IMG/VR virus record: IMGVR_UViG_3300029841_000009
Location: 4,544-68,543 of that record
DNA: 64,000 bases
Direction: 5' to 3' (one strand)
Source of the DNA: a virus
Lineage: Duplodnaviria; Heunggongvirae; Uroviricota; Caudoviricetes
Shown: piece after piece, positions 4,482 through 64,000 of the stretch
Position numbering within the stretch: position 1 is the first letter of the stretch
Layout: every line of letters begins with the position of its first letter
Position numbers and translations under genes: made by a program
The notes under the pieces: model-generated
What the model saw: the letters and a program-made list of their open reading frames with translations, nothing else
Told to the model about the DNA's origin: nothing
Database searches by the model: none

Positions 4482-5086
4482 CAGGACAACCTCGCAATGG
4501 TAAACTCGTCAACCGGTGGCTGTGGTTCCTGTGATTCATTCTGGCTATGCGAGCCAGCACTAAGAATCACGCGATTGTACATATTGAGAGCAAATGTACC
4601 GAGATCCGCATTCCCAGTCAGCGCCATGTTAATGGCTGCCGCAAGACGCCAGGCCAGCGCCTCCATAAAAATGGCATCAAACATGTTTACATCTGAAACG
4701 CGAGAGACATACTTGAGCCATGCCTGCGGCTGGTCTGTGTAGATCAATTTTCCTGTTCCGTTGGTGTCTGCACCAACTTCGTACTGAACGCGCATTGCTG
4801 CTGTTGGATTGCGTACACCAGGAAGCATAATTTCAGTAATGCGCAGACAATCTGACGGGTACTGGTACGCATATTCCCAGTCAGGCGGTGGATTGCTCGT
4901 ATCTGCAAGCGCCACGCGTTTGGTAGCAAAGTTCCAGTCAAAATCAGAAAGCACAGCATCACGGCAGGCCTCAAAGTGCAGCGAACATTCCCCCGCTTCC
5001 TTGCTGGCTTCCGTCAGGCTGTTAATGCTGCGGCTGTTGCCAATATTGGACAGCGCACGATTGCAGATCTCTACTACAGAGGCCAT
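4481..5086 (-). CDS. Tail tubular protein A-like / head-tail adaptor (T7 gp11-like)
   Basis: 201 aa; N-terminal pattern ...ALSNIG...W.F resembles gp11-type adaptors; size and order fit. Confidence 0.55.
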   Translation of the reverse strand: MASVVEICNRALSNIGNSRSINSLTEASKEAGECSLHFEACRDAVLSDFDWNFATKRVALADTSNPPPDWEYAYQYPSDCLRITEIMLPGVRNPTAAMRVQYEVGADTNGTGKLIYTDQPQAWLKYVSRVSDVNMFDAIFMEALAWRLAAAINMALTGNADLGTFALNMYNRVILSAGSHSQNESQEPQPPVDEFTIARLS

Positions 5087-15137: not shown

Positions 15138-15764
15138 TCACTGGTTGCCTCCTTTGCGAAGCTGTTCCGCCCATTCTTCAAGGGATTTCTCCGCATATTC
15201 ACCGGACAGGCCATCAATCGGATGCGCTTCATTAACCAACTCTTCTTTCGCTGACAAAATCATGCGTGTAACGTCGAAAACTTCACGCAAAGACTTATTG
15301 ATAAATCCGTGATTGAACGCAGCAGCAAGACGGCTGGCGGTATAGTTAATCCCCTCGTTGCGTGCTTCCGCACGAATTTCAGCCAGAAAAGCATCGGTAG
15401 CTGGAGTTTCGCTGTGGTGTAGGGCATCATTGATAATCATTGCAGCAACACCAGCCTGCCCTGCATCCGTGACCGACACATGCTCAAGAGTTACGGCCAT
15501 TGCGTGTTTCAGTCCGTCGTTCTCCACCACCAGCGCAGCGAGATTAGTCTCATACTCCGCAATTCGGCACATAGCATCGATATTTGTGTCCTCCAGCCGC
15601 TTAATTTCATCCAGTAGCGCCAGCACAACCTGCGGTGTGACCTTCATACGAAACGCGAGCAATTTTTGCGGCGTTGCCACGACTTTTATTGCTTCTGCTG
15701 CCTCACGCAGTGCCTGGTAATTAATTTCGCTCACTGGTTGCCTCCTGAATACGCTTAAACTCAA
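15138..15764 (-). CDS. Ead/Ea22-like protein (paralog)
   Basis: Contains SEINYQALREAAEA; its 3' ~250 bp is near-identical to 63750-64000. Confidence 0.5.
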   Translation of the reverse strand: MSLSVFRRQPVSEINYQALREAAEAIKVVATPQKLLAFRMKVTPQVVLALLDEIKRLEDTNIDAMCRIAEYETNLAALVVENDGLKHAMAVTLEHVSVTDAGQAGVAAMIINDALHHSETPATDAFLAEIRAEARNEGINYTASRLAAAFNHGFINKSLREVFDVTRMILSAKEELVNEAHPIDGLSGEYAEKSLEEWAEQLRKGGNQ

Positions 15765-27833: not shown

Positions 27834-28214
27834 TTACTTAACGAGGAATAAAAATGGTTTATCGTTCGGCGGTGTACTCGGGGCTGGCTCGCTTTTGCTC
27901 ATACGATCAGTGTACCAGGCCAGCTCCTTGTCAAAGTAAGCCTGATTAAAATAGGCCATGAATGTGGTTTCAAATCCATAACGACCGCTAATACGCAGCA
28001 TCTGATTGCCGTTCTCTGTTTCCAGATATACCTGGGCACGTTCCTGATTCTCCTTCAGCCAAGTTAAAGCCTCGTCGCACGAGGACACACGATACTCATC
28101 ATCGTAGCCGTCATCGATGCGGCTTGAAGAAGAACGGCAAATCACGCCAACAGAACCAGCCAGGATAGTTTGAATTTTAAGGAAAGCGTTTTTGCGGATT
28201 TTAATCATGCTCAT
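27834..28214 (-). CDS. Hypothetical protein driven by cassette copy 2
   Basis: 126-aa ORF directly downstream of the conserved promoter-leader cassette. Confidence 0.45.
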   Translation of the reverse strand: MSMIKIRKNAFLKIQTILAGSVGVICRSSSSRIDDGYDDEYRVSSCDEALTWLKENQERAQVYLETENGNQMLRISGRYGFETTFMAYFNQAYFDKELAWYTDRMSKSEPAPSTPPNDKPFLFLVK

Positions 28215-28333
28215 CGGGTTATCTCCGGTTTAACCAGGGCGGGTATCGCTCGGTTTCGGGTATAACCATAGGAAATTTTTTCCCACCTGTAAAGCACTTT
28301 TATATAAATCTATAATTATATAATTCTATGAGC
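28215..28333 (-). promoter_or_regulatory. Conserved promoter-leader cassette, copy 2
   Basis: Near-identical to 58794-58911; -35 TTTACA, 17 bp, -10 TATGGT, leader, GGAG SD, ATG. Confidence 0.5.
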
Positions 28334-28334
28334 A

Positions 28335-28361
28335 CAAAAAAGCCCCTTTGCAACAGGGGCT
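28335..28361 (-). terminator. Rho-independent terminator after the higBA operon
   Basis: AGCCCCT-ttgcaac-AGGGGCT with T6 on the minus strand. Confidence 0.55.
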
Positions 28362-28376
28362 TATCATTCGTTCTGA

Positions 28377-28676
28377 TCAGATGTTAAACGCTATTCGTTT
28401 TCCTGTGGGAAGCTCAACATCCAGGCTTAATTTGCCTCCCATAGCTTCAACGTAACGCTTTAATGTCGCCAGCTTTAAATCATTTCCGCGCTGCTCCAGC
28501 TTTGTTACTGCTGGCTGGCTTATACCCATCGCCTCAGCAACCTGCTTTTGTGATAACTGGAGTTCTTCACGCATCATCTGCAAGCCGACCTCAAGAATCA
28601 TCTCATCTGCCATTTCTTTAATTCGCGCCTGGCTTTCCGGTAAACGGCTGGCAATCACCTCATCTAATGTTCTCAT
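28377..28676 (-). CDS. higA: HigA-like antitoxin (HTH-XRE)
   Basis: 99 aa with HTH (LSQKQVAEAMGISQPAVTKLEQ); immediately downstream of and overlapping the toxin gene. Confidence 0.65.
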   Translation of the reverse strand: MRTLDEVIASRLPESQARIKEMADEMILEVGLQMMREELQLSQKQVAEAMGISQPAVTKLEQRGNDLKLATLKRYVEAMGGKLSLDVELPTGKRIAFNI

Positions 28677-29029
28677 TACTTGCTCTCCAGTGTGTTCAGA
28701 TGTGCTGCAAACTCATCCTCAGCTATACGCACCAGTTTTTTATAAAACCGCTTATCGTTACTTTTGTCTCCTGCACAAAGAACGATAGCCCGGCGAATCG
28801 GATCGAACGCATAAAAGGCTCTTATCGGACGGCCAGAAAACTGAACGCGAAGCTCTTTCATATTTTTGTACCGAGAACCTTTTACGGTATCGGCATATGG
28901 CCTGGGTAACTCAGGTCCGTAAACCTGTAGCTTTTTCAAATCAGCCAAAACCTTTTCCTGAAGAGCGTCTTCTTGCTCATTTAGCCAGCCGTCAAATCGC
29001 TGGCTAAAAAGTACCGTCCACATGCTCAA
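28676..29029 (-). CDS. higB: HigB-like toxin (RelE/ParE superfamily)
   Basis: 117 aa; toxin-first order; resembles the HigB / Gp49-like killer family. Confidence 0.65.
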   Translation of the reverse strand: MSMWTVLFSQRFDGWLNEQEDALQEKVLADLKKLQVYGPELPRPYADTVKGSRYKNMKELRVQFSGRPIRAFYAFDPIRRAIVLCAGDKSNDKRFYKKLVRIAEDEFAAHLNTLESK

Positions 29030-29267
29030 TCCTATAACCTGTAGTTTATATCACTAACTATATAACCTGTGAGTTATAATTTCAAGAAAAACGGGGCCAT
29101 TTAACATAATGGACGTTATCGGCACCACCGGATCACCGTTCATTGTCGGATCTAAAAAATCCGCTCAAAAGATCATGTTTTCCTGGGCGTTTTCCACCGT
29201 TTTTTATGTTGCTTATTTGTTAATGAAATCTCGTTTTCAGTTTCGCCTCATTTTCGACGCGAAAGCC

Positions 29268-29558
29268 CTATTTTTGTGACTTTACTCCTGGCATATGGAC
29301 TTCCCAGCGACGAATCCCCATAGCTGCGCAAAAATCAGCCACATAATTCAATCCCGCCCATTCGCGGATACCACCACGGGCTTTTTCAATGAAAACGGCA
29401 ATCCCTTTTTTATTGAGAGCAAAAAGCCGCCAGCTTTTTGTCACTTCGTCCTGGGTAGCCACAACACAAGTGAAAGCTCCCATGCGATACAGGTCCAAGA
29501 ACTCTTTGCGTGTTTTGCGTACAAGTTCCATAACAAACCTCATATTTGCATGTTTCAA
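29268..29558 (-). CDS. Hypothetical protein (plasmid backbone)
   Basis: 96-aa ORF near the replicon. Confidence 0.35.
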   Translation of the reverse strand: MKHANMRFVMELVRKTRKEFLDLYRMGAFTCVVATQDEVTKSWRLFALNKKGIAVFIEKARGGIREWAGLNYVADFCAAMGIRRWEVHMPGVKSQK

Positions 29559-29854
29559 ACATCTGTTTTGTTATCAATGAAGATTAACCCTAACCCAGCG
29601 AAGTAACACAGCAGCGCCCAGGCTGCATACGGAATGCTGGATCTGGATGTGGACTCCTTTAACATCTGCCAGTTGCGAACATTGCGACTATCTTTTAAGC
29701 CTAGTTTTTTGGCTAACTGCGAGCCGCTCATTCCGGTCAGGCCAATGACTGCCCGAACTTCTCCACATGTAGGAGATTCCCATTCATCCGCTTTTTTTAA
29801 ACAAGCCGGATTCAACATTTTTAAAACAGTATCTTTATCCATAACCATCTCCAT
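29555..29854 (-). CDS. Putative DNA-binding protein with C-terminal hydrophobic segment
   Basis: HTH-like GEVRAVIGLTGMSGSQLAKKLGL plus C-terminal IPYAAWALLCYFAGLGLIFI. Confidence 0.3.
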   Translation of the reverse strand: MEMVMDKDTVLKMLNPACLKKADEWESPTCGEVRAVIGLTGMSGSQLAKKLGLKDSRNVRNWQMLKESTSRSSIPYAAWALLCYFAGLGLIFIDNKTDV

Positions 29855-30039
29855 TTATTATATCTACGATGATAGGAAATCTTTTCCTATGTGGCAATAG
29901 AAATTTACTACATTGCGTATAAGACAAGTTTTCTATGTCTAATAGGAAATGATGTTTCTTACATTTTATCGCGTTCTGATGGCTACTGTGTGCGTATTTA
30001 TCGACGTTTATTGATAAGGCTCGCCCCTTCCTCCTGCAA

Positions 30040-30350
30040 AGCCCGGCCGTAGGCCTTATTTCGGCCTTATATAAATTGATTTTGTATAGTTCGAAACGTG
30101 CCGTTTCGAAAAGGATGATCAGGCTGCTCCATGCCTCCGGCAAGTGCCGGAGGAGGTATATTTGAGCGTAGCGACTCGAACCGGCGCGAGCTTTAGCTCG
30201 CTGCAAGGGCGAACATATTCACAGGCAAAGCCTGTGTAAGTTAAATAAAGAAAGTCTTAATAAAAGAAAGTGATTTTGCATTTATTTGTTTAGTGCATCT
30301 ATTATAAAAAACCATTTGCATATACATATCAGAACTGTGGATAACTTTAT
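30040..30350. other. Candidate oriR: hairpin cluster, AT-rich tract and DnaA box
   Basis: DnaA box TGTGGATAA at 30336-30344; palindromes at 30092-30108, 30134-30153, 30186-30201, 30221-30237; TTTGCAT repeats; directly downstream of repA. Confidence 0.5.
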
Positions 30351-30485
30351 TAGCCGATGCCTGTAAAGGCGATATTTTTGCTGTGTTCAGGTTTAGAGAA
30401 AATTAATTTAGATTGTTTTTTGAACAGATATTTTATTGCGACGTAGATAATCCTCCGGTAAAACCGGATTCATCATTCAGGTGGG

Positions 30486-31334
30486 TTAATGTTGGAGTGA
30501 TTTCCAGGTCTTTCTTAACCTGTTATAACGCTGCTCAACGAGGGATCGTAAATATGCAAGGTCAGCACCAGGATACATGCCATCAGCAAATTCCTGACTA
30601 ACCTCTCTGGTGATTTGATGACGAAGTTCGGCCTCTCCCTTTTCCCGAACAAGACGCGCAGCTCTCTCCGCTGCTTTCTGTTTTGCCTTTATCTCTCTGG
30701 CCGTCTTCCTCTGACGCCATACATTCTCCATCTGCTCCTGAATAACAATACGCTTATAATCAGCCTCCGTTATCGCTTTTTTAAGCCGTTCGCTATTCTT
30801 CGCATTGAAGTAATTAAGTTTCTGGCTAACCGCACGTCTCCATGCTTGTTCAGTAATACCAACGGTTTCCAGCAGTTGATCACGAATCTCTATTTTCGCT
30901 GGCCAATACTGTTTATTCACCCGATCCCAGCGACGTTCATAATCAATAAAACCTAACGCTTTCAGTTGCGACAACGCCCTTGTACAGCGCGTTATAGACT
31001 TGTTCCCAGCTTCGGATACGGTAGACAGGCCGCAAAAATCAGCCAACGCCTCAGCACTAGCCAGAACCCGCTTAGAAATGATGTTTACATGGTGCAAAAT
31101 CGCAGCGATCACAGCATTAATCGCCCGACGACGATGCTCGTTTATCCGGCGCTTCCGCTCTGACGGTTGATTAACGTAGAACGCAACCTCACACGTAAGA
31201 TCACGCCCATTAATGCGCTGTAAAGCATCAGATAACACCAGCGGCAGCTTGTGCGTATGGTGCTTTGGAGGCTGGAACTCCGGCGACAAATTACAAACGT
31301 AAGCTGAACGTAGAGACGGCATTGGTCTATCCAT
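30486..31334 (-). CDS. repA: IncFII-type replication initiator RepA (ORF extends to 31466 but likely starts at MDRPMPSL)
   Basis: Segment KSITRCTRALSQLKALGFIDYE and basic C-terminus resemble IncFII RepA1; the upstream in-frame extension overlaps an antisense promoter/terminator. Confidence 0.75.
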   Translation of the reverse strand: MDRPMPSLRSAYVCNLSPEFQPPKHHTHKLPLVLSDALQRINGRDLTCEVAFYVNQPSERKRRINEHRRRAINAVIAAILHHVNIISKRVLASAEALADFCGLSTVSEAGNKSITRCTRALSQLKALGFIDYERRWDRVNKQYWPAKIEIRDQLLETVGITEQAWRRAVSQKLNYFNAKNSERLKKAITEADYKRIVIQEQMENVWRQRKTAREIKAKQKAAERAARLVREKGEAELRHQITREVSQEFADGMYPGADLAYLRSLVEQRYNRLRKTWKSLQH

Positions 31335-31378
31335 ATGTTCGCTCTTGCGTCCACGGAAAACCAACGTATAATGGGAGT

Positions 31379-31460
31379 TGTCGAGGCGCCCATGGATTGT
31401 TGTTGTTGGTTTTCCGTGGATGTCGCAAGAAGCCCGCAGATTTATCTGCGGGCTTTTTGT
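31379..31460 (+). ncRNA. CopA-like antisense RNA candidate opposite the repA leader
   Basis: Plus-strand promoter TTGCGT-16 bp-TATAAT (31345-31372), stem-loop, and terminator GCCCGCAG-attta-TCTGCGGGC-TTTTT (31430-31458). Confidence 0.35.
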
Positions 31461-31502
31461 TTCCATATCTGGTCACTTTCCAACCAGACACCCACAATCA
31501 TA

Positions 31503-31517
31503 ACCACGTTACGTGGT
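31503..31517. promoter_or_regulatory. Operator site (ACCAC-GTTAC-GTGGT) in the repA promoter region
   Basis: Perfect palindrome of the same family as the cro/CI operators. Confidence 0.45.
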
Positions 31518-31829
31518 TTTAAGAGAACTCTACCACAACACTTTCGGTCATGCACGAAGTCTCTCACTGATCGAACGATAATCCACCAGTAAAAGGATCT
31601 AAATTGGATCTCGTTTTGCGAGCATCATACTACTGGCCTAACTCCAGTCAATGATTCCCAGCCAGAAACCTGCGGTAAACTCATCGTTCAGCAATATGCT
31701 GTCCGGCTTCAAAGATAAGGTGACATCATCCCTTAACAGCGCGGCCAGCTCCGTTAAAGGGTTGTTTTGACTTAATGCAAAACCGCTAATAAACATATTG
31801 GCGGTTTTGTTCCTTAAATCATCTTGCCT

Positions 31830-32405
31830 TTACACTAATTCTGGCCATTCGATATCAGGGGCATTTTCCGGCTGAACGCGATTCAGTAGCACACGGTATT
31901 TTTTCCAGTGTGTCAGGCTTAACTTTTCTTCCTCGGTAGCCATATCTAAATCGACAGCATCCTGCAGAGTGGCAATAATTTCACCTGCATATGCAATCAG
32001 CTCTTTCTTCTGAGAGTCAGCCGCTCTGACAAGCGCATCACGCTCTGCATTCTCATCATTCACCCACGCATTGCCGTTCCATTTCTGATAATCCCCCTCC
32101 GGGGAAATGGCTGTCACGTCTGGAGGTAATACGCCAAGTTCAGAAATATAAATGGCTGCTCCCGTTTTCGTTTCATAGACGGTCTTTCCGCGATGGTCTT
32201 CCATCAGTTCCCATTTCATTTCATCTGCATTGAAAACGGCTGCATAACCCGCCGGAATATCAGGCGGTGCAATATCTGTACTGTTTGCAGGCAGGCCAGT
32301 ATACGGTGGGATATATGCGTCACTTTCGCCAATAAATTCATTGGTTCCATCAAGTAAATTGAAAACGCGGATAGTTTGTGCTTCTGCACTCATTCTGAAA
32401 GCCAT
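31830..32405 (-). CDS. Tail fibre assembly protein
   Basis: 191 aa directly downstream of the tail fibre gene; Tfa-like size and composition. Confidence 0.7.
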
Positions 32406-35209
32406 TATGCAAGCCTCACAATATAGTTAAATGCGATGTTTTTGACGGTGTTTTCGGTATTACCCGTAGCATTTACCGTGATGGTGTGTCCGTGCGCACC
32501 TAATGCTACAGTGTGTGCATGGGCACCAATACCTACAGTGTGGTTATGCTGACCAATATCCACCGTATGGGCGTGCGCTCCGGCGGTGCTGGACACCTGA
32601 TTGTTTCCTGAAGCCTGTACACGCTGTTTTCCACCGACAGAGTCGCCGCCATAAACACCACCGACAGTGTGCGTATGATTGCCCGTATTGTTCGTTGATT
32701 TTGTGCCATGATTAAACGTACTGACCGTCTTCGTGCCGTAATCAAACGAACTGGTTGTTTTCGTTCCCAAATCCGTATTTGACGCACTGGCACTGTGAGT
32801 ATGCGATTTAATCCCGTCCTGTTCCTGTGACAATACGGCACGCCCACTGGCGGGTTTGCCCTTGATTGTCCAGCCGCGCATATCTGGAATAACACCAGAA
32901 GGATAGGCTATAGCCAGTTTCGGATATGCTGCCTTATCAAACGTCTGCCCCTGCATAATTGCATAGCCCGCAGGTGGTGTATCTGATGGCCACGGCAACG
33001 GAACACCTGGCGGAAATGCTTCAATATTTGCCGAGCCGTCAAATTTTACGCCGTTAATTGTCCTTGCCGTTTTCAGCTTTGTAGCTGTAGCCGCATTGCC
33101 GGACAGTTCACCAGAAAGACCACCGCTGAATGTCTGTTTCGCCGCCCATGTCTGAGCTTCGTCGATAATTGGCACACGTCTTGTCGTGATCGTGCGGCTT
33201 CCCGGATTTCCTGAAATACGCACCATAAAAAAGCGGTAATTCGCTTTACTTACAGTGCTGCGCCATACATGCATTGAGCGCCCCGTACCGGAATCATCAC
33301 TCGGACCAACTGCGATGTTTATCAGGTTGCCATCAATGACGCCCCAGTCCATACCGTCGGGAATGTTGGTCATGTTATCAAGCCGAACGGTTATCAGACT
33401 GCCCGGCACAAAGTCGTGGGTCTGCCAGTCCAGGCTGGTGAGCTTTGCCACTGCACCGCCGATACCCAGATTCAGGGGAAGTGAATACGAGGTGTAGACT
33501 TCCCGCCATTCGCTCCATGAGCTGCCGGTAAAAACGCGCTCAAACGTGCGACCTTTAAGGGTTGTACCTGTTCCGGCAGTTGTATAACGCTGCCATACGT
33601 TAACACCATCAAAGCGCCTCAACACTTCCAGAATACCGAGGACTGTCACGCCGTTTCCGTCCAGTATTGGACCATTGGTCGCTTTACCTGTAACGCTGTA
33701 AATACCTGGTGAAGTCACATCATTCAAATCCCCGTCGTAATAACGACTCTCTGACTGATGACCGACTCTTAACCACGGTTCCCACTGCGGATTTGATGCA
33801 TCCCAGCTTGCCGCAAGGCAGCGGACATACATATTTCCACGGCGAGTGGTATAACGTTGCGTTCTTCCATAATTCCCGCCTTCGAGGATCTCAAGCGTCC
33901 CCTGAGCAAAGCCGCCTTCCTCTGGATAATTGCGTTCATATGAAGCTATAGCCGAGCTACTGTTACGCCATAAACCAAGATGCTCGGCGGCTCCAAGCGT
34001 ATTCAGGTCTATAGTCGTACTCAAAGGGCGGGTAGCAGATTGAGTGTGACGCCATACGCCCCACGGACCATCAGTGCCATTCCACTTACTGGCGAGTTTA
34101 CGCATGTATACATTGCCGTCTCCCGTGGTAAAGCGTTGAGTACCTGCAAAATTGCCGGCAGCAAAAACCTCAAGCACACCGACAGCATTATCTTCCGGGA
34201 AATTTTTCTCCAGTGTTGCGTTAGTTGAGGTAGCTTTAGACCAGATCCCCAGATAAGCCTTAACGGGACCAAATGTATTCAGGTCGGCATCAACCGGCAT
34301 TTCGCCATTGTTTTTCATAAACGTCAGGCTAGTAACGCCAACATTGTCCAGAAAAGCTGATTTATCCTGGATATCTGCACCGTTCTGATTTTTCGCCAGA
34401 CGTGAATTTGCGTTGTCATTTGCTGCCTTGACCGCTTTTGGCGTTGCCGCCTGCGTTTCAGACGTACTGTTAGTGGCACTACTGAGCTGAACAATCCCTT
34501 TTCGCGCCGTGGTAGCGTCCTGTGCGGTGTATTTAGCGTTAGCCAGGTCATATGCAGCCTTAACAGCCTTAGGCGTCGCTGCGAGCTTTTCAGACGTGCT
34601 ATTGGTGGCATTACTGAGTTGAACAATGCCTTTTGATGTTAAAGTTGCATCAGGATGATTACGTGATTGCTCATGTTTTACAATAGCTTGCTTAAGCCGC
34701 TTTGCTGAAACAGCCAGGGAATCATCTGTACCTGCATCAATTTCTTGTTCATTAGCAAATCTTGCTACTCCAACAACAGTTTCGGTTGCGGGAGGGTTAA
34801 TAAACTCAACATCACCAAATGTAATGTTTTTAGTATCAAGATTTTTAATTGCTATATCACTTGATATTAAAGCAATTGTAGAAGATGCTTTATTTATTAT
34901 TACTTGTTCTTGCGAGTATACAGCAAACAATGTTCCTTTATTTGTATACAAACCTATTGTATGGACAACATACTCATCTTTACTATCATCCTTCGCAGTT
35001 ACATGAATGGTATCAGGAGAAACGACTTTGCCTCCTATTGTGGTAAGTCGCTTTATTTCATCTGTTATTTTTGTTTGTGTGGTTGATGTGGCATAATATC
35101 TACTACCTAAACCAACAGAAACGATCTCAACTTTATTTGTTCCAGTCTTGTTGGCATTAACCAGCGCCTTACGCCCGGCGTCAGTCATCGTAAATAATAA
35201 TTTACTCAC
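32405..35209 (-). CDS. Tail fibre protein
   Basis: 934 aa; internal tandem repeat [24 protein letters not shown] x2; C-terminal His-box repeats (HTHTV, AHAHTV, HNHTV, AHAHTV, HGHTI). Confidence 0.8.
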
Positions 35210-59972: not shown

Positions 59973-60012
59973 TTGATGCGTGCGCCCATGAGAAAAGCGC
60001 ATAGAATGTTGT

Positions 60013-60047
60013 AACTATATATTTATATAATTATAGAAATATATATT
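60013..60047. repeat. AT-rich iteron downstream of the spanin genes
   Basis: AACTATATATTTATATAATTATAGAAATATATATT, same family as the parA-flanking iterons. Confidence 0.45.
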
Positions 60048-63737: not shown

Positions 63738-64000
63738 AACTGAACTCCTTTGCGAATCTGTTCCGCCCATTCTTCAAGGGATTTCTCCGCATATTCACCG
63801 GACAGGCCATCAATCGGGTACGGTTCATTAGCCAACTCTTCTTTCGCTGACAGAATCATGCGCGTAACGTCGAAAACTTCACGCAAAGACTTATTGATAA
63901 ATCCGTGATTGAACGCAGCAGCAAGACGGCTGGCGGTATAGTTAATCCCCTCGTTGCGTGCTTCCGCACGAATTTCAGCCAGAAAAGCATCGGTAGCTGG
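63734..64000 (-). CDS. Ead/Ea22-like protein, C-terminal part (gene runs off the right edge)
   Basis: Near-identical at DNA level to the 3' end of 15138-15764; stop TGA at 63734-63736. Confidence 0.5.
   Translation of the reverse strand, partial: PATDAFLAEIRAEARNEGINYTASRLAAAFNHGFINKSLREVFDVTRMILSAKEELANEPYPIDGLSGEYAEKSLEEWAEQIRKGVQL

Follow-up and report, generated by a model that had tools for sequence, protein, structure and literature searches.

The replicons of plasmids R1 and R100 follow the order copB-copA-tap-repA-CIS-oriR, and R1 itself has a 188-bp oriR, a DnaA box with RepA bound immediately downstream, and unidirectional theta replication (PMC5883639). A second well described group, comprising the IncL/M, IncB and IncI1 replicons, combines an antisense RNA (RNAI or Inc RNA) with a repB/repY leader peptide and a pseudoknot. 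Phage-plasmids move genes, resistance genes included, by infection and persist as plasmids, and to our knowledge the determinants of their copy number and compatibility are known for only a few models (P1, N15 and SSU5). Here we examine a replicon built around a repA gene within a 64,000-nt stretch of a tailed virus (Caudoviricetes; IMG/VR record IMGVR_UViG_3300029841_000009, positions 4,544 to 68,543). This whole stretch is referred to below as the window, and coordinates are those of the window unless a relative is named. The best explanation of the locus is that it constitutes the plasmid-maintenance replicon, theta-type and RepA-dependent, of a ~48-kb tailed phage-plasmid, and we consider it highly probable that it functions as a RepA_IncFII_LM-type replicon in which an antisense RNA exerts control and an oriR-like origin lies downstream.

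The locus is a distant relative of the classic IncFII and IncL/M replicons that is neither IncFII proper nor, it appears, IncL/M-like in its mode of control. As in R1/R100, a predicted antisense unit lies opposite the repA leader, and repA is followed by a spacer with a hairpin, a DnaA box and a putative initiator-binding, AT-rich sequence. Unlike R1/R100, no copB-like gene was found, the interval between the repA promoter and the tail-fibre assembly gene holding only a 52-aa open reading frame (ORF) without a Pfam match, and there is no short ORF with a ribosome-binding site (RBS) ending at the repA start in the manner of tap; the R1-type plasmid used for comparison (L013; relatives are designated by such labels throughout) has annotated copB, tap and repA. 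Three features go beyond the current annotation of the region: an RNA control region, a RepA start that is probably mis-annotated, and a conserved block of hairpins with an adjoining CTG. Since the replicon class is a textbook one, the general significance is modest. What is gained is a defined replicon for a widespread, undescribed ~48-kb group that occurs in E. coli, Salmonella and Klebsiella and has also been obtained as phages infecting Yersinia, as well as a concrete, testable proposal for antisense control.

RepA and its start codon

The initiator gene and the ORF extension in front of it are as follows.

30486..31334, minus strand: repA coding sequence, 282 aa; start ATG 31334-31332, Shine-Dalgarno sequence (SD) AAGAG 31346-31342, alternative ATG 31322-31320
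31335..31466, minus strand: in-frame ORF extension of 44 codons, the N-terminus of RepA in RefSeq; probably untranslated leader

RepA matches the Pfam family IncFII_repA (PF02387) over nearly the entire profile (positions 2-272 of 275; E 1.3e-43, 149.8 bits, cutoff 22.9), the same Pfam family as the RepA of R1/R100. As for the IncL/M-IncB-IncI1 group, its best score is obtained with the NCBIfam model RepA_IncFII_LM (NF040977), which it covers completely (model 1-266 of 266; 232.2 bits, cutoff 70), whereas its 79.2 bits against the strict IncFII equivalog TIGR03474 (incFII_RepA) fall far below the cutoff of 446.9. By these profile matches RepA is a member of RepA_IncFII_LM and the replicon is not IncFII proper, so that the label "IncFII-type" given by the initial annotation holds at the superfamily level but not in the strict sense. 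Compared directly with R1-type RepA, about a third of the length can be aligned (40% identity over 97 aa only, E 2e-19); the two share the motif SITRxTRAL...LG.I.Y, and the previously quoted NKSITRCTRALSQLKALGFIDYE aligns with KLSITRATRALTFLSELGLITYQ of the R1-type protein. The RepA of a Klebsiella KPC plasmid (L014) is 37% identical over the full length, and a PDB sequence search with RepA gave no meaningful match.

The full ORF spans 30486..31466 on the minus strand (326 aa), and RefSeq annotates the same length (WP_224158527.1, in the two plasmid records inspected). It had been suspected beforehand that the first 44 codons are leader rather than protein, and several observations argue for this. 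Firstly, the Pfam match begins at residue 53 of the 326-aa ORF, and the alignment of homologues starts at window residue 49 with conservation from R53, so that no conserved N-terminus reaches 31466. Secondly, of the 27 homologues from the databases, the ones with 81-85% and 58-63% identity measure 274-284 aa; the extension is absent in all relatives at 58-85% identity, and in L004 and L005 no open repA frame continues upstream. Thirdly, the ATG at 31466 lies directly upstream of the complement of a terminator hairpin (described below), while the ATG at 31334 has the conserved AAGAG 7 nt upstream and an ATGGA context in both of the leader types defined below, and a truncated RepA paralogue found in type-B relatives aligns from this same codon (Met-45 of the 326-aa ORF). 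The ATG at 31322 is the start used by gene callers in relatives. One point counts against the overall interpretation: the first ATG with an SD is in frame with repA in the window and in L012, but out of frame in L004, L005 and L006. The extension is probably an untranslated leader and the true RepA about 278-282 aa long, in which case the RefSeq annotation would be about 44 codons too long.

A phage-plasmid carries the replicon

The part of the window from 15128 to 64000 matches NZ_AP022164.1, a circular E. coli plasmid of 47,454 bp, collinearly over its entire length at 98-99% identity. The virion and lysis genes annotated in that plasmid include holins, endolysin, terminase, portal, capsid, tail tube, tape measure, baseplate and tail fibre, and its plasmid genes comprise ParA, ParB-like proteins and a RelE/ParE toxin pair, with repA as the only replication initiator. 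In the window itself, the ~48 kb around the replicon likewise encode terminase, portal, capsid, sheath/tube, baseplate and tail fibre, which agrees with the phage context originally noted for the replicon. The 1.8-kb replicon region recurs at 95-99.9% identity in 62 circular PLSDB plasmids of 47-52 kb, whose hosts are mostly E. coli and otherwise Salmonella or Klebsiella; all are typed as non-mobilizable, and repA is the sole annotated initiator in the plasmid carriers of the region. It is also present (98-99%) in three isolated Yersinia pestis phages, vB_YpM_39, 41 and 44. Because virion genes occur together with existence both as circular plasmids and as isolated phages, and because a complete virion module stands beside replicon and partition genes, the segment from 15.1 to 64 kb is a complete ~48-kb phage-plasmid of the myovirus type.

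Like P1/P7, N15 and SSU5/pSLy3 (PMC7969092), this element is a temperate tailed phage that would persist at low copy number as a plasmid and that carries a replicon, ParA, ParB-like proteins and a toxin-antitoxin pair of its own; unlike the P1/P7, N15 and SSU5/pSLy3 groups described there, it has a different virion module. The class of replicon differs as well, being an iteron RepA/IncY replicon in P1 and RepB in SSU5. Membership in the pSLy3/SSU5 group was considered and rejected, since those elements are of the siphovirus type with RepB. Yersinia phage HQ103, a plasmid-like pseudolysogen, was also set aside: its paper gives no tie to the present group, and it is absent from the phage records that match the region. 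By large terminase, the closest named phages are the Vibrio myoviruses X29, phi 2 and Rostov 7 (63-65%). A literature search by accession, protein identifier and phage names found no paper describing this phage-plasmid group, and the MOB-suite typing in PLSDB assigns no replicon type to these plasmid records.

A predicted antisense RNA unit

Opposite the repA leader, the initial annotation had pointed out a plus-strand promoter, a stem-loop and a strong terminator. All three were located, the terminator with slightly wider limits (31425-31460 rather than 31430-31458).

31345..31372, plus strand: antisense promoter; -35 TTGCGT 31345-31350, 16-nt spacer, -10 TATAAT 31367-31372
31379..31462, plus strand: predicted ~84-nt antisense RNA; single-stranded 5' tail UGUCGA, stem-loop I, stem-loop II (terminator)
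31385-31424, plus strand: stem-loop I (SL-I), U-rich 16-nt loop
31425-31460, plus strand: stem-loop II (SL-II), intrinsic terminator; 16-bp hairpin, then UUUUUGUUU

Two types of leader can be distinguished among the relatives. Type A comprises seven distinct sequences, namely the window, L004, L005, L006 and L012 (RepA 62-85% identical to that of the window) and the viral contigs L016 and L028; type B comprises L009-L011, L017, L019, L020, L022 and L023. Both promoter hexamers and their 16-nt spacing are invariant in 7/7 type-A sequences, though the spacer itself varies, the spacer and the arms of SL-I changing together. The 84-nt RNA has a minimum free energy of -41.1 kcal/mol (z = -6.5 versus shuffles), and 3 of the 27 pairs in its consensus fold show double-sided compensation (two in SL-I, and an A-U to G-C change in the terminator). 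Furthermore, G·U pairs occur both in SL-I and in the extended stem of the terminator, and because these would be C·A mismatches on the sense strand, the fold is specific to the plus-strand transcript. Type B has TTGCAT-18-TATAAT and again a terminator hairpin; the two types share a 21-nt core, GCCTCGACAACTCC(C/G)ATTATA, which corresponds to the -10 and the first ~13 nt of the RNA, and type B also keeps a GC(G/T)AA element beside the antisense -35 as well as part of the terminator stem (invariant columns of alignment A4).

In size (~84 nt, compared with a CopA model of 92 positions in Rfam) and in having two hairpins of which the second is a terminator, the predicted RNA resembles the antisense RNA of R1/R100. 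Unlike the arrangement in those plasmids, the antisense promoter here lies inside the loop and 3' arm of its target hairpin. CopA (RF00042) gave no Rfam match at E<=1 in 28000-34000, the positive control being 106.3 bits for CopA in the classical IncFII plasmid L013, and neither PK-repBA (RF01089) nor PK-repZ (RF01087) matched in the window at E<=1 or in L009 at E<=0.1. The terminator drew partial matches below threshold to CsrC (22.7 bits, gathering score 61) and Thr_leader (31.3, gathering score 55), which reflect hairpin shape only; the other matches in the window at E<=1 were sub-threshold too (IS009 in the tail-fibre assembly gene tfa, sR17 in repA) and included no copy-control family. 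A pattern scan of genome contigs returned one chance match, in an Actinomycetota metagenome-assembled genome. The control region thus appears to match no RNA family described in Rfam, and of the earlier term "CopA-like antisense" the analogy stands, on the strength of the conserved hexamers, two hairpins, terminator and compensatory and G·U pairs, whereas homology to CopA was not detected. These features support a CopA analogue that would be transcribed from the plus strand.

The strand-specific features also bear upon the possibility that there is no antisense regulator at all, with the hairpins acting as cis elements of the repA mRNA (for stability, as a translational operator or as an RNA thermometer) and the terminator-like hairpin merely shielding repA from tail-fibre transcription. 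Any hairpin does fold on the complementary strand too, hairpin H of the leader (see below) belongs to the sense RNA, as its 3' arm lies upstream of the antisense start, and the antisense -35 agrees with the consensus at 3/6 positions, so weakly that a consensus scan missed the promoter. However, TTGCGT-16-TATAAT is fixed in all type-A sequences and TATAAT in type B, though the arm would be free to vary; the U-run follows the hairpin on the plus strand only; the G·U pairs of SL-I and the terminator stem become C·A on the sense strand; and no upstream plus-strand gene needs a terminator. We therefore hold the absence of an antisense RNA to be very unlikely.

The repA leader and proposed control of RepA translation

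The features of the leader, from the predicted promoter towards repA, are given below.

31624..31651, minus strand: predicted repA promoter; TTGACT 31651-31646, 16 nt, TATGAT 31629-31624
31596..31610, no strand assigned: pair of GATC sites spaced by 11 nt (GATCCAATTTAGATC), immediately past the predicted start of repA transcription
31502..31518, minus strand: conserved leader hairpin, AACCACG-loop-CGTGGTT (alignment A2)
31343..31430, minus strand: hairpin H of the repA mRNA leader; lower stem 31430-31424/31349-31343 (7 bp, contains the SD)
31419-31405 with 31365-31351, minus strand: upper stem of hairpin H, 15 bp; 39-nt loop with invariant core GCCUCGACAACUCCCAUUAUA

The repA promoter, which falls outside the interval originally proposed for the replicon (30040-31520), agrees with the consensus at 10/12 positions in the scan, and its hexamers are kept in L004, L005, L006 and L012 while the flanks diverge. 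The GATC pair is preserved as GATCC-N6-7-GATCC in L004, L005 and L006, and may serve as an operator for a protein or as a site sensitive to Dam/SeqA. In the hairpin at 31502-31518 the stem is kept as the loop varies, with G·U pairs in L004 and L006 on the sense strand only. Hairpin H forms only in the repA mRNA, because its 3' arm is the spacer of the antisense promoter. In type A, RNAalifold predicts 38 pairs for it, 4 with double-sided compensatory changes. Type B has a hairpin at the same position built from unrelated arm sequences; since the arms are not collinear in the MAFFT alignment, a joint covariation count was ruled out and the two types were analysed separately.

Based upon these features, we propose the following mode of control. 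repA would be transcribed leftwards from 31651-31624 through a ~280-nt structured leader, and the ~84-nt antisense RNA would arise from the constitutive-looking promoter inside this leader and end at the 31425-31460 terminator. Pairing of the antisense RNA with the leader would make RepA synthesis fall as gene dosage rises, thereby controlling copy number as CopA and Inc RNA do. In the free leader, hairpin H would pair 31430-31405 with 31365-31343; binding of the antisense RNA to the 5' arm would set the 3' arm (CGUUGGUUUUCCGUG) free to re-pair with UAUGGA.AGACCAAUG and bury both repA start codons.

In folding predictions, blocking 31380-31462 reduces the probability of being unpaired from 0.90 to 0.09 for the second repA ATG (ATG2) and from 0.39 to 0.26 for the first (ATG1), with the freed 3' arm of H pairing with the start region in just this manner. 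Shuffling the 3' arm abolishes the occlusion of the starts in five type-A leaders with ATG1-ATG2 spacers of different length and sequence; native start accessibility lies below that of 150/150 shuffles in four of them and below 98.7% in L012. Several points weigh against such a switch. The refolding effect in type B is weak and not significant relative to shuffled arms. The SD of the first ATG is buried in the fold of the free leader (probability unpaired 0.03-0.05), which would leave RepA translation unexplained; an ORF beginning in the leader at 31393 could open the hairpin, yet it has no SD and no conserved stop and is absent in type B. We accordingly place an antisense-triggered refolding that buries the repA starts at slightly less than an even chance.

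A rival reading is control of the IncL/M-IncB-IncI type, in which a leader peptide is translated through the repA RBS, a pseudoknot joins the loop to the RBS side and the antisense RNA blocks both; the refolding described above would then be a folding artefact. The closest non-phage relatives by RepA, L008 (63%; a conjugative-plasmid contig) and L014 (37%; the KPC plasmid), share the origin and hairpin block of the window (E 2e-49) but have a PK-repBA leader, with CopA-like matches on the opposite strand. In these two the pseudoknot leader and a CopA-like RNA with a CGCCAA loop lie at L008:2863-2989 and L014:2350-2469, with PK-repBA scores of 49.3 and 56.7 bits (gathering score 45). The ORF at ATG 31393 (MGASTTPIIRW...) has its start codon in the antisense target and continues across the 3' arm, the SD and the repA start, and in L005 and L006 it is tap-like, being 32 codons long and ending 26 nt past the repA ATG. 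The burial of the repA SD in the free leader also has its parallel in R1/R100.

Against IncL/M-type control stand the lack of the corresponding Rfam matches reported above and the leader sequence itself: it has no UUGGCG/CGCCAA loop pair, the loop of hairpin H carrying UGGGCG instead, and no pseudoknot partner was found, inspection of both leader types near the RBS revealing no complement of at least 5 nt to the invariant loop GCCUCGACAACUCC. The AUG of the 31393 ORF is itself paired (probability unpaired 0.06), the length to its stop varies from 32 to 83 codons and type B has no loop AUG. The promoter and hairpin are conserved at the nucleotide level, which accounts for the conservation of its peptide, and the leader-peptide idea was rejected on these grounds. 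Control of the IncL/M-IncB-IncI type is, in our estimation, distinctly unlikely for the window.

When the relatives are considered together, RepA and the origin are kept while the RNA control region is swapped, and the phage-plasmid lineage appears to have exchanged its control module for another. One sub-lineage has a truncated second repA in between: in the type-B relatives L009 and L010 (L009:2516-3004, L010:2516-3004), the antisense region and the full repA are separated by a 162-aa ORF that overlaps the repA start (ATGA). This ORF is a diverged N-terminal half of RepA (30% identity to window RepA, E 4e-14), of which L011 retains a 63-aa remnant, and it looks like the product of a control-module swap by recombination that left repA translationally coupled to the relic.

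The probable origin downstream of repA

The order of elements beyond the repA stop is as follows.

30451..30473, minus strand: conserved post-repA hairpin (AATCCGGTTTTACCGGAGGATT), counterpart of the start of the R1 "CIS" spacer
30336..30344, minus strand: DnaA box TTATCCACA, the only perfect box in 64 kb, invariant in relatives
30275..30324, no strand assigned: three TGCAT-centred repeats (30277-81, 30294-98, 30317-21), candidate RepA-binding sites
30237..30335, no strand assigned: AT-rich tract, probable unwinding region; tandem 15-mer TTAAATAAAGAAAGT / TTAATAAAAGAAAGT at 30241-30271 (repeat D1)
30215-30223: second DnaA-like box ATATTCACA, inverted with respect to the first and overlapping hairpin 4 (region 30215..30236)

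The case for an origin at this position rests upon an R1-like layout together with strong conservation of the whole region among relatives. The post-repA hairpin is invariant or covarying (TCCGG/CCGGA versus TCCAG/CTGGA) in nine relatives and aligns with that of the R1-type plasmid L013, and the segment from this hairpin to the DnaA box, including the distance between them, resembles L013 (nhmmer E 6e-8). Similarity to L013 is detectable in that segment only, and L013 shows the same order of origin parts. Against L014, the origin scores an nhmmer E of 2e-49. In alignment A3, the DnaA box, the ATGCA repeats and the flanking blocks are near-invariant down to 37% RepA identity.

The DnaA box and AT-rich tract of the initial annotation were both recovered, the latter with a GC content of 0.22-0.25 across 30250-30339. 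Chance alone predicts 0.78 perfect DnaA boxes in 64 kb, so that the mere presence of one carries little weight; what matters is that relatives keep it unchanged and that it lies 141 nt beyond the repA stop, compared with 174 nt in L013. At the site of the second box, most relatives have a box with at most one mismatch, and in L019 and L023 it is perfect. The ATGCA columns are invariant in alignment A3 and a direct repeat, D2, is found there. Although the RepA-site region has no sequence similarity to that of R1, the TGCAT repeats are candidate RepA sites by analogy with the position of the RepA sites in R1 (PMC5883639).

In the proposed scheme, RepA, acting preferentially in cis, and host DnaA would open the origin 141 nt downstream of repA, using the DnaA box, the three TGCAT repeats as putative RepA sites, the AT-rich tract and the second, inverted DnaA-like box. 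Replication would then proceed away from repA, presumably in the direction known from R1. A Ter site near the origin, as in R1, was not found, the only good Ter-like site lying 30 kb away. This site, AGAATGTTGTAACTAT at 60001-60016 (plus strand), occupies an AT-rich intergenic gap and agrees at 15/16 positions with the Tus-binding Ter consensus, AGNATGTTGTAAYKAA; in this orientation it would presumably stop forks moving towards higher coordinates.

The hairpin cluster beyond the origin

Four short palindromes follow the AT-rich tract, with limits (30090-30236) close to those first reported (30092-30237).

30220-30236, no strand assigned: hairpin 4, CACAGGC-AAA-GCCTGTG, overlapping the second DnaA-like box
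30186-30201, plus strand: hairpin 1, GCGAGC-TTTA-GCTCGC, flanked by the invariant blocks CGAACCGGCGCG and CGCTGCAAGGGCG (30177..30211)
30134-30153, plus strand: hairpin 2, CCTCCGGC-AAGT-GCCGGAGG, a DNA fold also flagged as terminator-like
30090-30110, plus strand: hairpin 3, TTCGAAACG-TGC-CGTTTCGAA, a DNA fold

The repeat search did not list these short palindromes at the settings used, and they were verified by reading, DNA folding and covariation. Across 15 relatives, hairpin 1 is paired in 100% of cells with 3/6 pairs compensatory, and hairpin 4 has double-sided changes in 3/7 pairs, with G·T on the repA-sense strand in 12/15 sequences. Taken together, 90.9% of cells in the hairpins are paired, versus 31-40% with slid partners, and 0/500 shuffles reach the covariation score. 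The blocks beside hairpin 1 are invariant even in L008 and L014, and the most invariant sequence of all is CGCTGCAAGGGCG (30199-30211), which places a CTG (30201-30203) at the 3' foot of hairpin 1.

The palindromes had been likened to primosome-assembly or single-strand initiation (ssi) sites. G-site or G4-type ssi signals were reportedly described in R1 and R100 by Masai and Arai in 1989, and in the G4 complementary-strand origin (oric) CTG is the trinucleotide at which primase starts. On the plus strand, which is expected to be the leading-strand template if replication leaves repA as it does in R1, the three GC-rich hairpins at 30090-30110, 30134-30153 and 30186-30201 precede the CTG just beyond the origin, as in G4, and the motif at the CTG site is CTGCAAGG, compared with CTGCAAAG in G4. 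It is this layout that survives of the likeness to ssi sites. Sequence similarity does not: by blastn and Smith-Waterman comparison with G4 oric the best local score was 32 against a shuffled mean of 27 and maximum of 41, a test of little power, as the R1-type L013 was equally undetectable. Of the three hairpins, furthermore, only one covaries, hairpins 2 and 3 being invariant within type A. Type B and L014 have another GC hairpin at the position of hairpin 2 and lack hairpin 3.

The cluster at 30090-30211 may act as a primase entry signal of the G-site kind for the leading strand, the most speculative step of our scheme. We put such a priming role at even odds or slightly better. The palindromes might otherwise be terminators or protein-binding sites (for RepA, for a partition or host factor, or for insulating the origin). 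The terminator-like appearance of hairpin 2, the lack of covariation in hairpins 2 and 3 and the overlap of hairpin 4 with a DnaA-like box, with its G·T pairs on the repA-sense strand rather than on the predicted leading-strand template, would all fit that explanation, as would the dissimilarity to G4 oric and the loss of hairpin 3 in some relatives. It is harder to reconcile with the block travelling with the origin rather than with the flanking genes, the neighbours being different in L008 (a conjugative-plasmid context) and L014 (a KPC plasmid), and with the location of the CTG, which adjoins the foot of the hairpin that covaries best and has two further hairpins on its 5' side. We consider a non-priming function possible, though somewhat doubtful.

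A still broader proposal would join the priming role to the control region: IncL/M-type control would have been replaced in the phage-plasmid lineage by a three-element RNA switch, in which the hairpin targeted by the antisense RNA holds the antisense promoter in its loop and 3' arm, and binding frees that arm to bury the repA starts, and the hairpin/CTG block would represent an uncatalogued primase entry site of RepA_IncFII_LM replicons more widely. In its entirety this proposal strikes us as unlikely.

Neighbouring sequences

The first 15,128 nt of the window come from a different phage, with Bbp16 cement, portal and terminase genes, and are 97-98% identical to 41-kb records labelled as plasmids. 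The phage-plasmid is flanked by 256-bp ead/Ea22-like repeats (15149-15404 and 63745-64000) that are 97% identical. The junction of the 15-kb phage part with the phage-plasmid was found in no complete E. coli genome and may have arisen by recombination, by cointegrate formation or by chimeric assembly.

On the promoter side of repA, position 31679, 28 bp upstream of the repA -35, marks the point at which similarity is lost to relatives having a hin/recombinase gene and an invertible tail-fibre segment beside repA, namely the Yersinia phages and several plasmids; in the window, by contrast, the genes for tail-fibre assembly (31830-32405) and for the tail fibre (32405-35209) are fixed. The sub-threshold IS009 match mentioned above (52 bits, gathering score 117; 31864-32062, minus strand) lies inside the tail-fibre assembly gene, and L009 has an IS009-like match resembling it; both probably reflect similarity of tfa coding sequence and not a small RNA. 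On the other side, ~1 kb beyond the origin, 28377-29029 (minus strand) encodes a RelE/ParE-family (Gp49/HigB-like) toxin with a helix-turn-helix antitoxin, and a toxin-antitoxin pair beside the replicon is kept in relatives, some of which have HicAB or ParE in its place.

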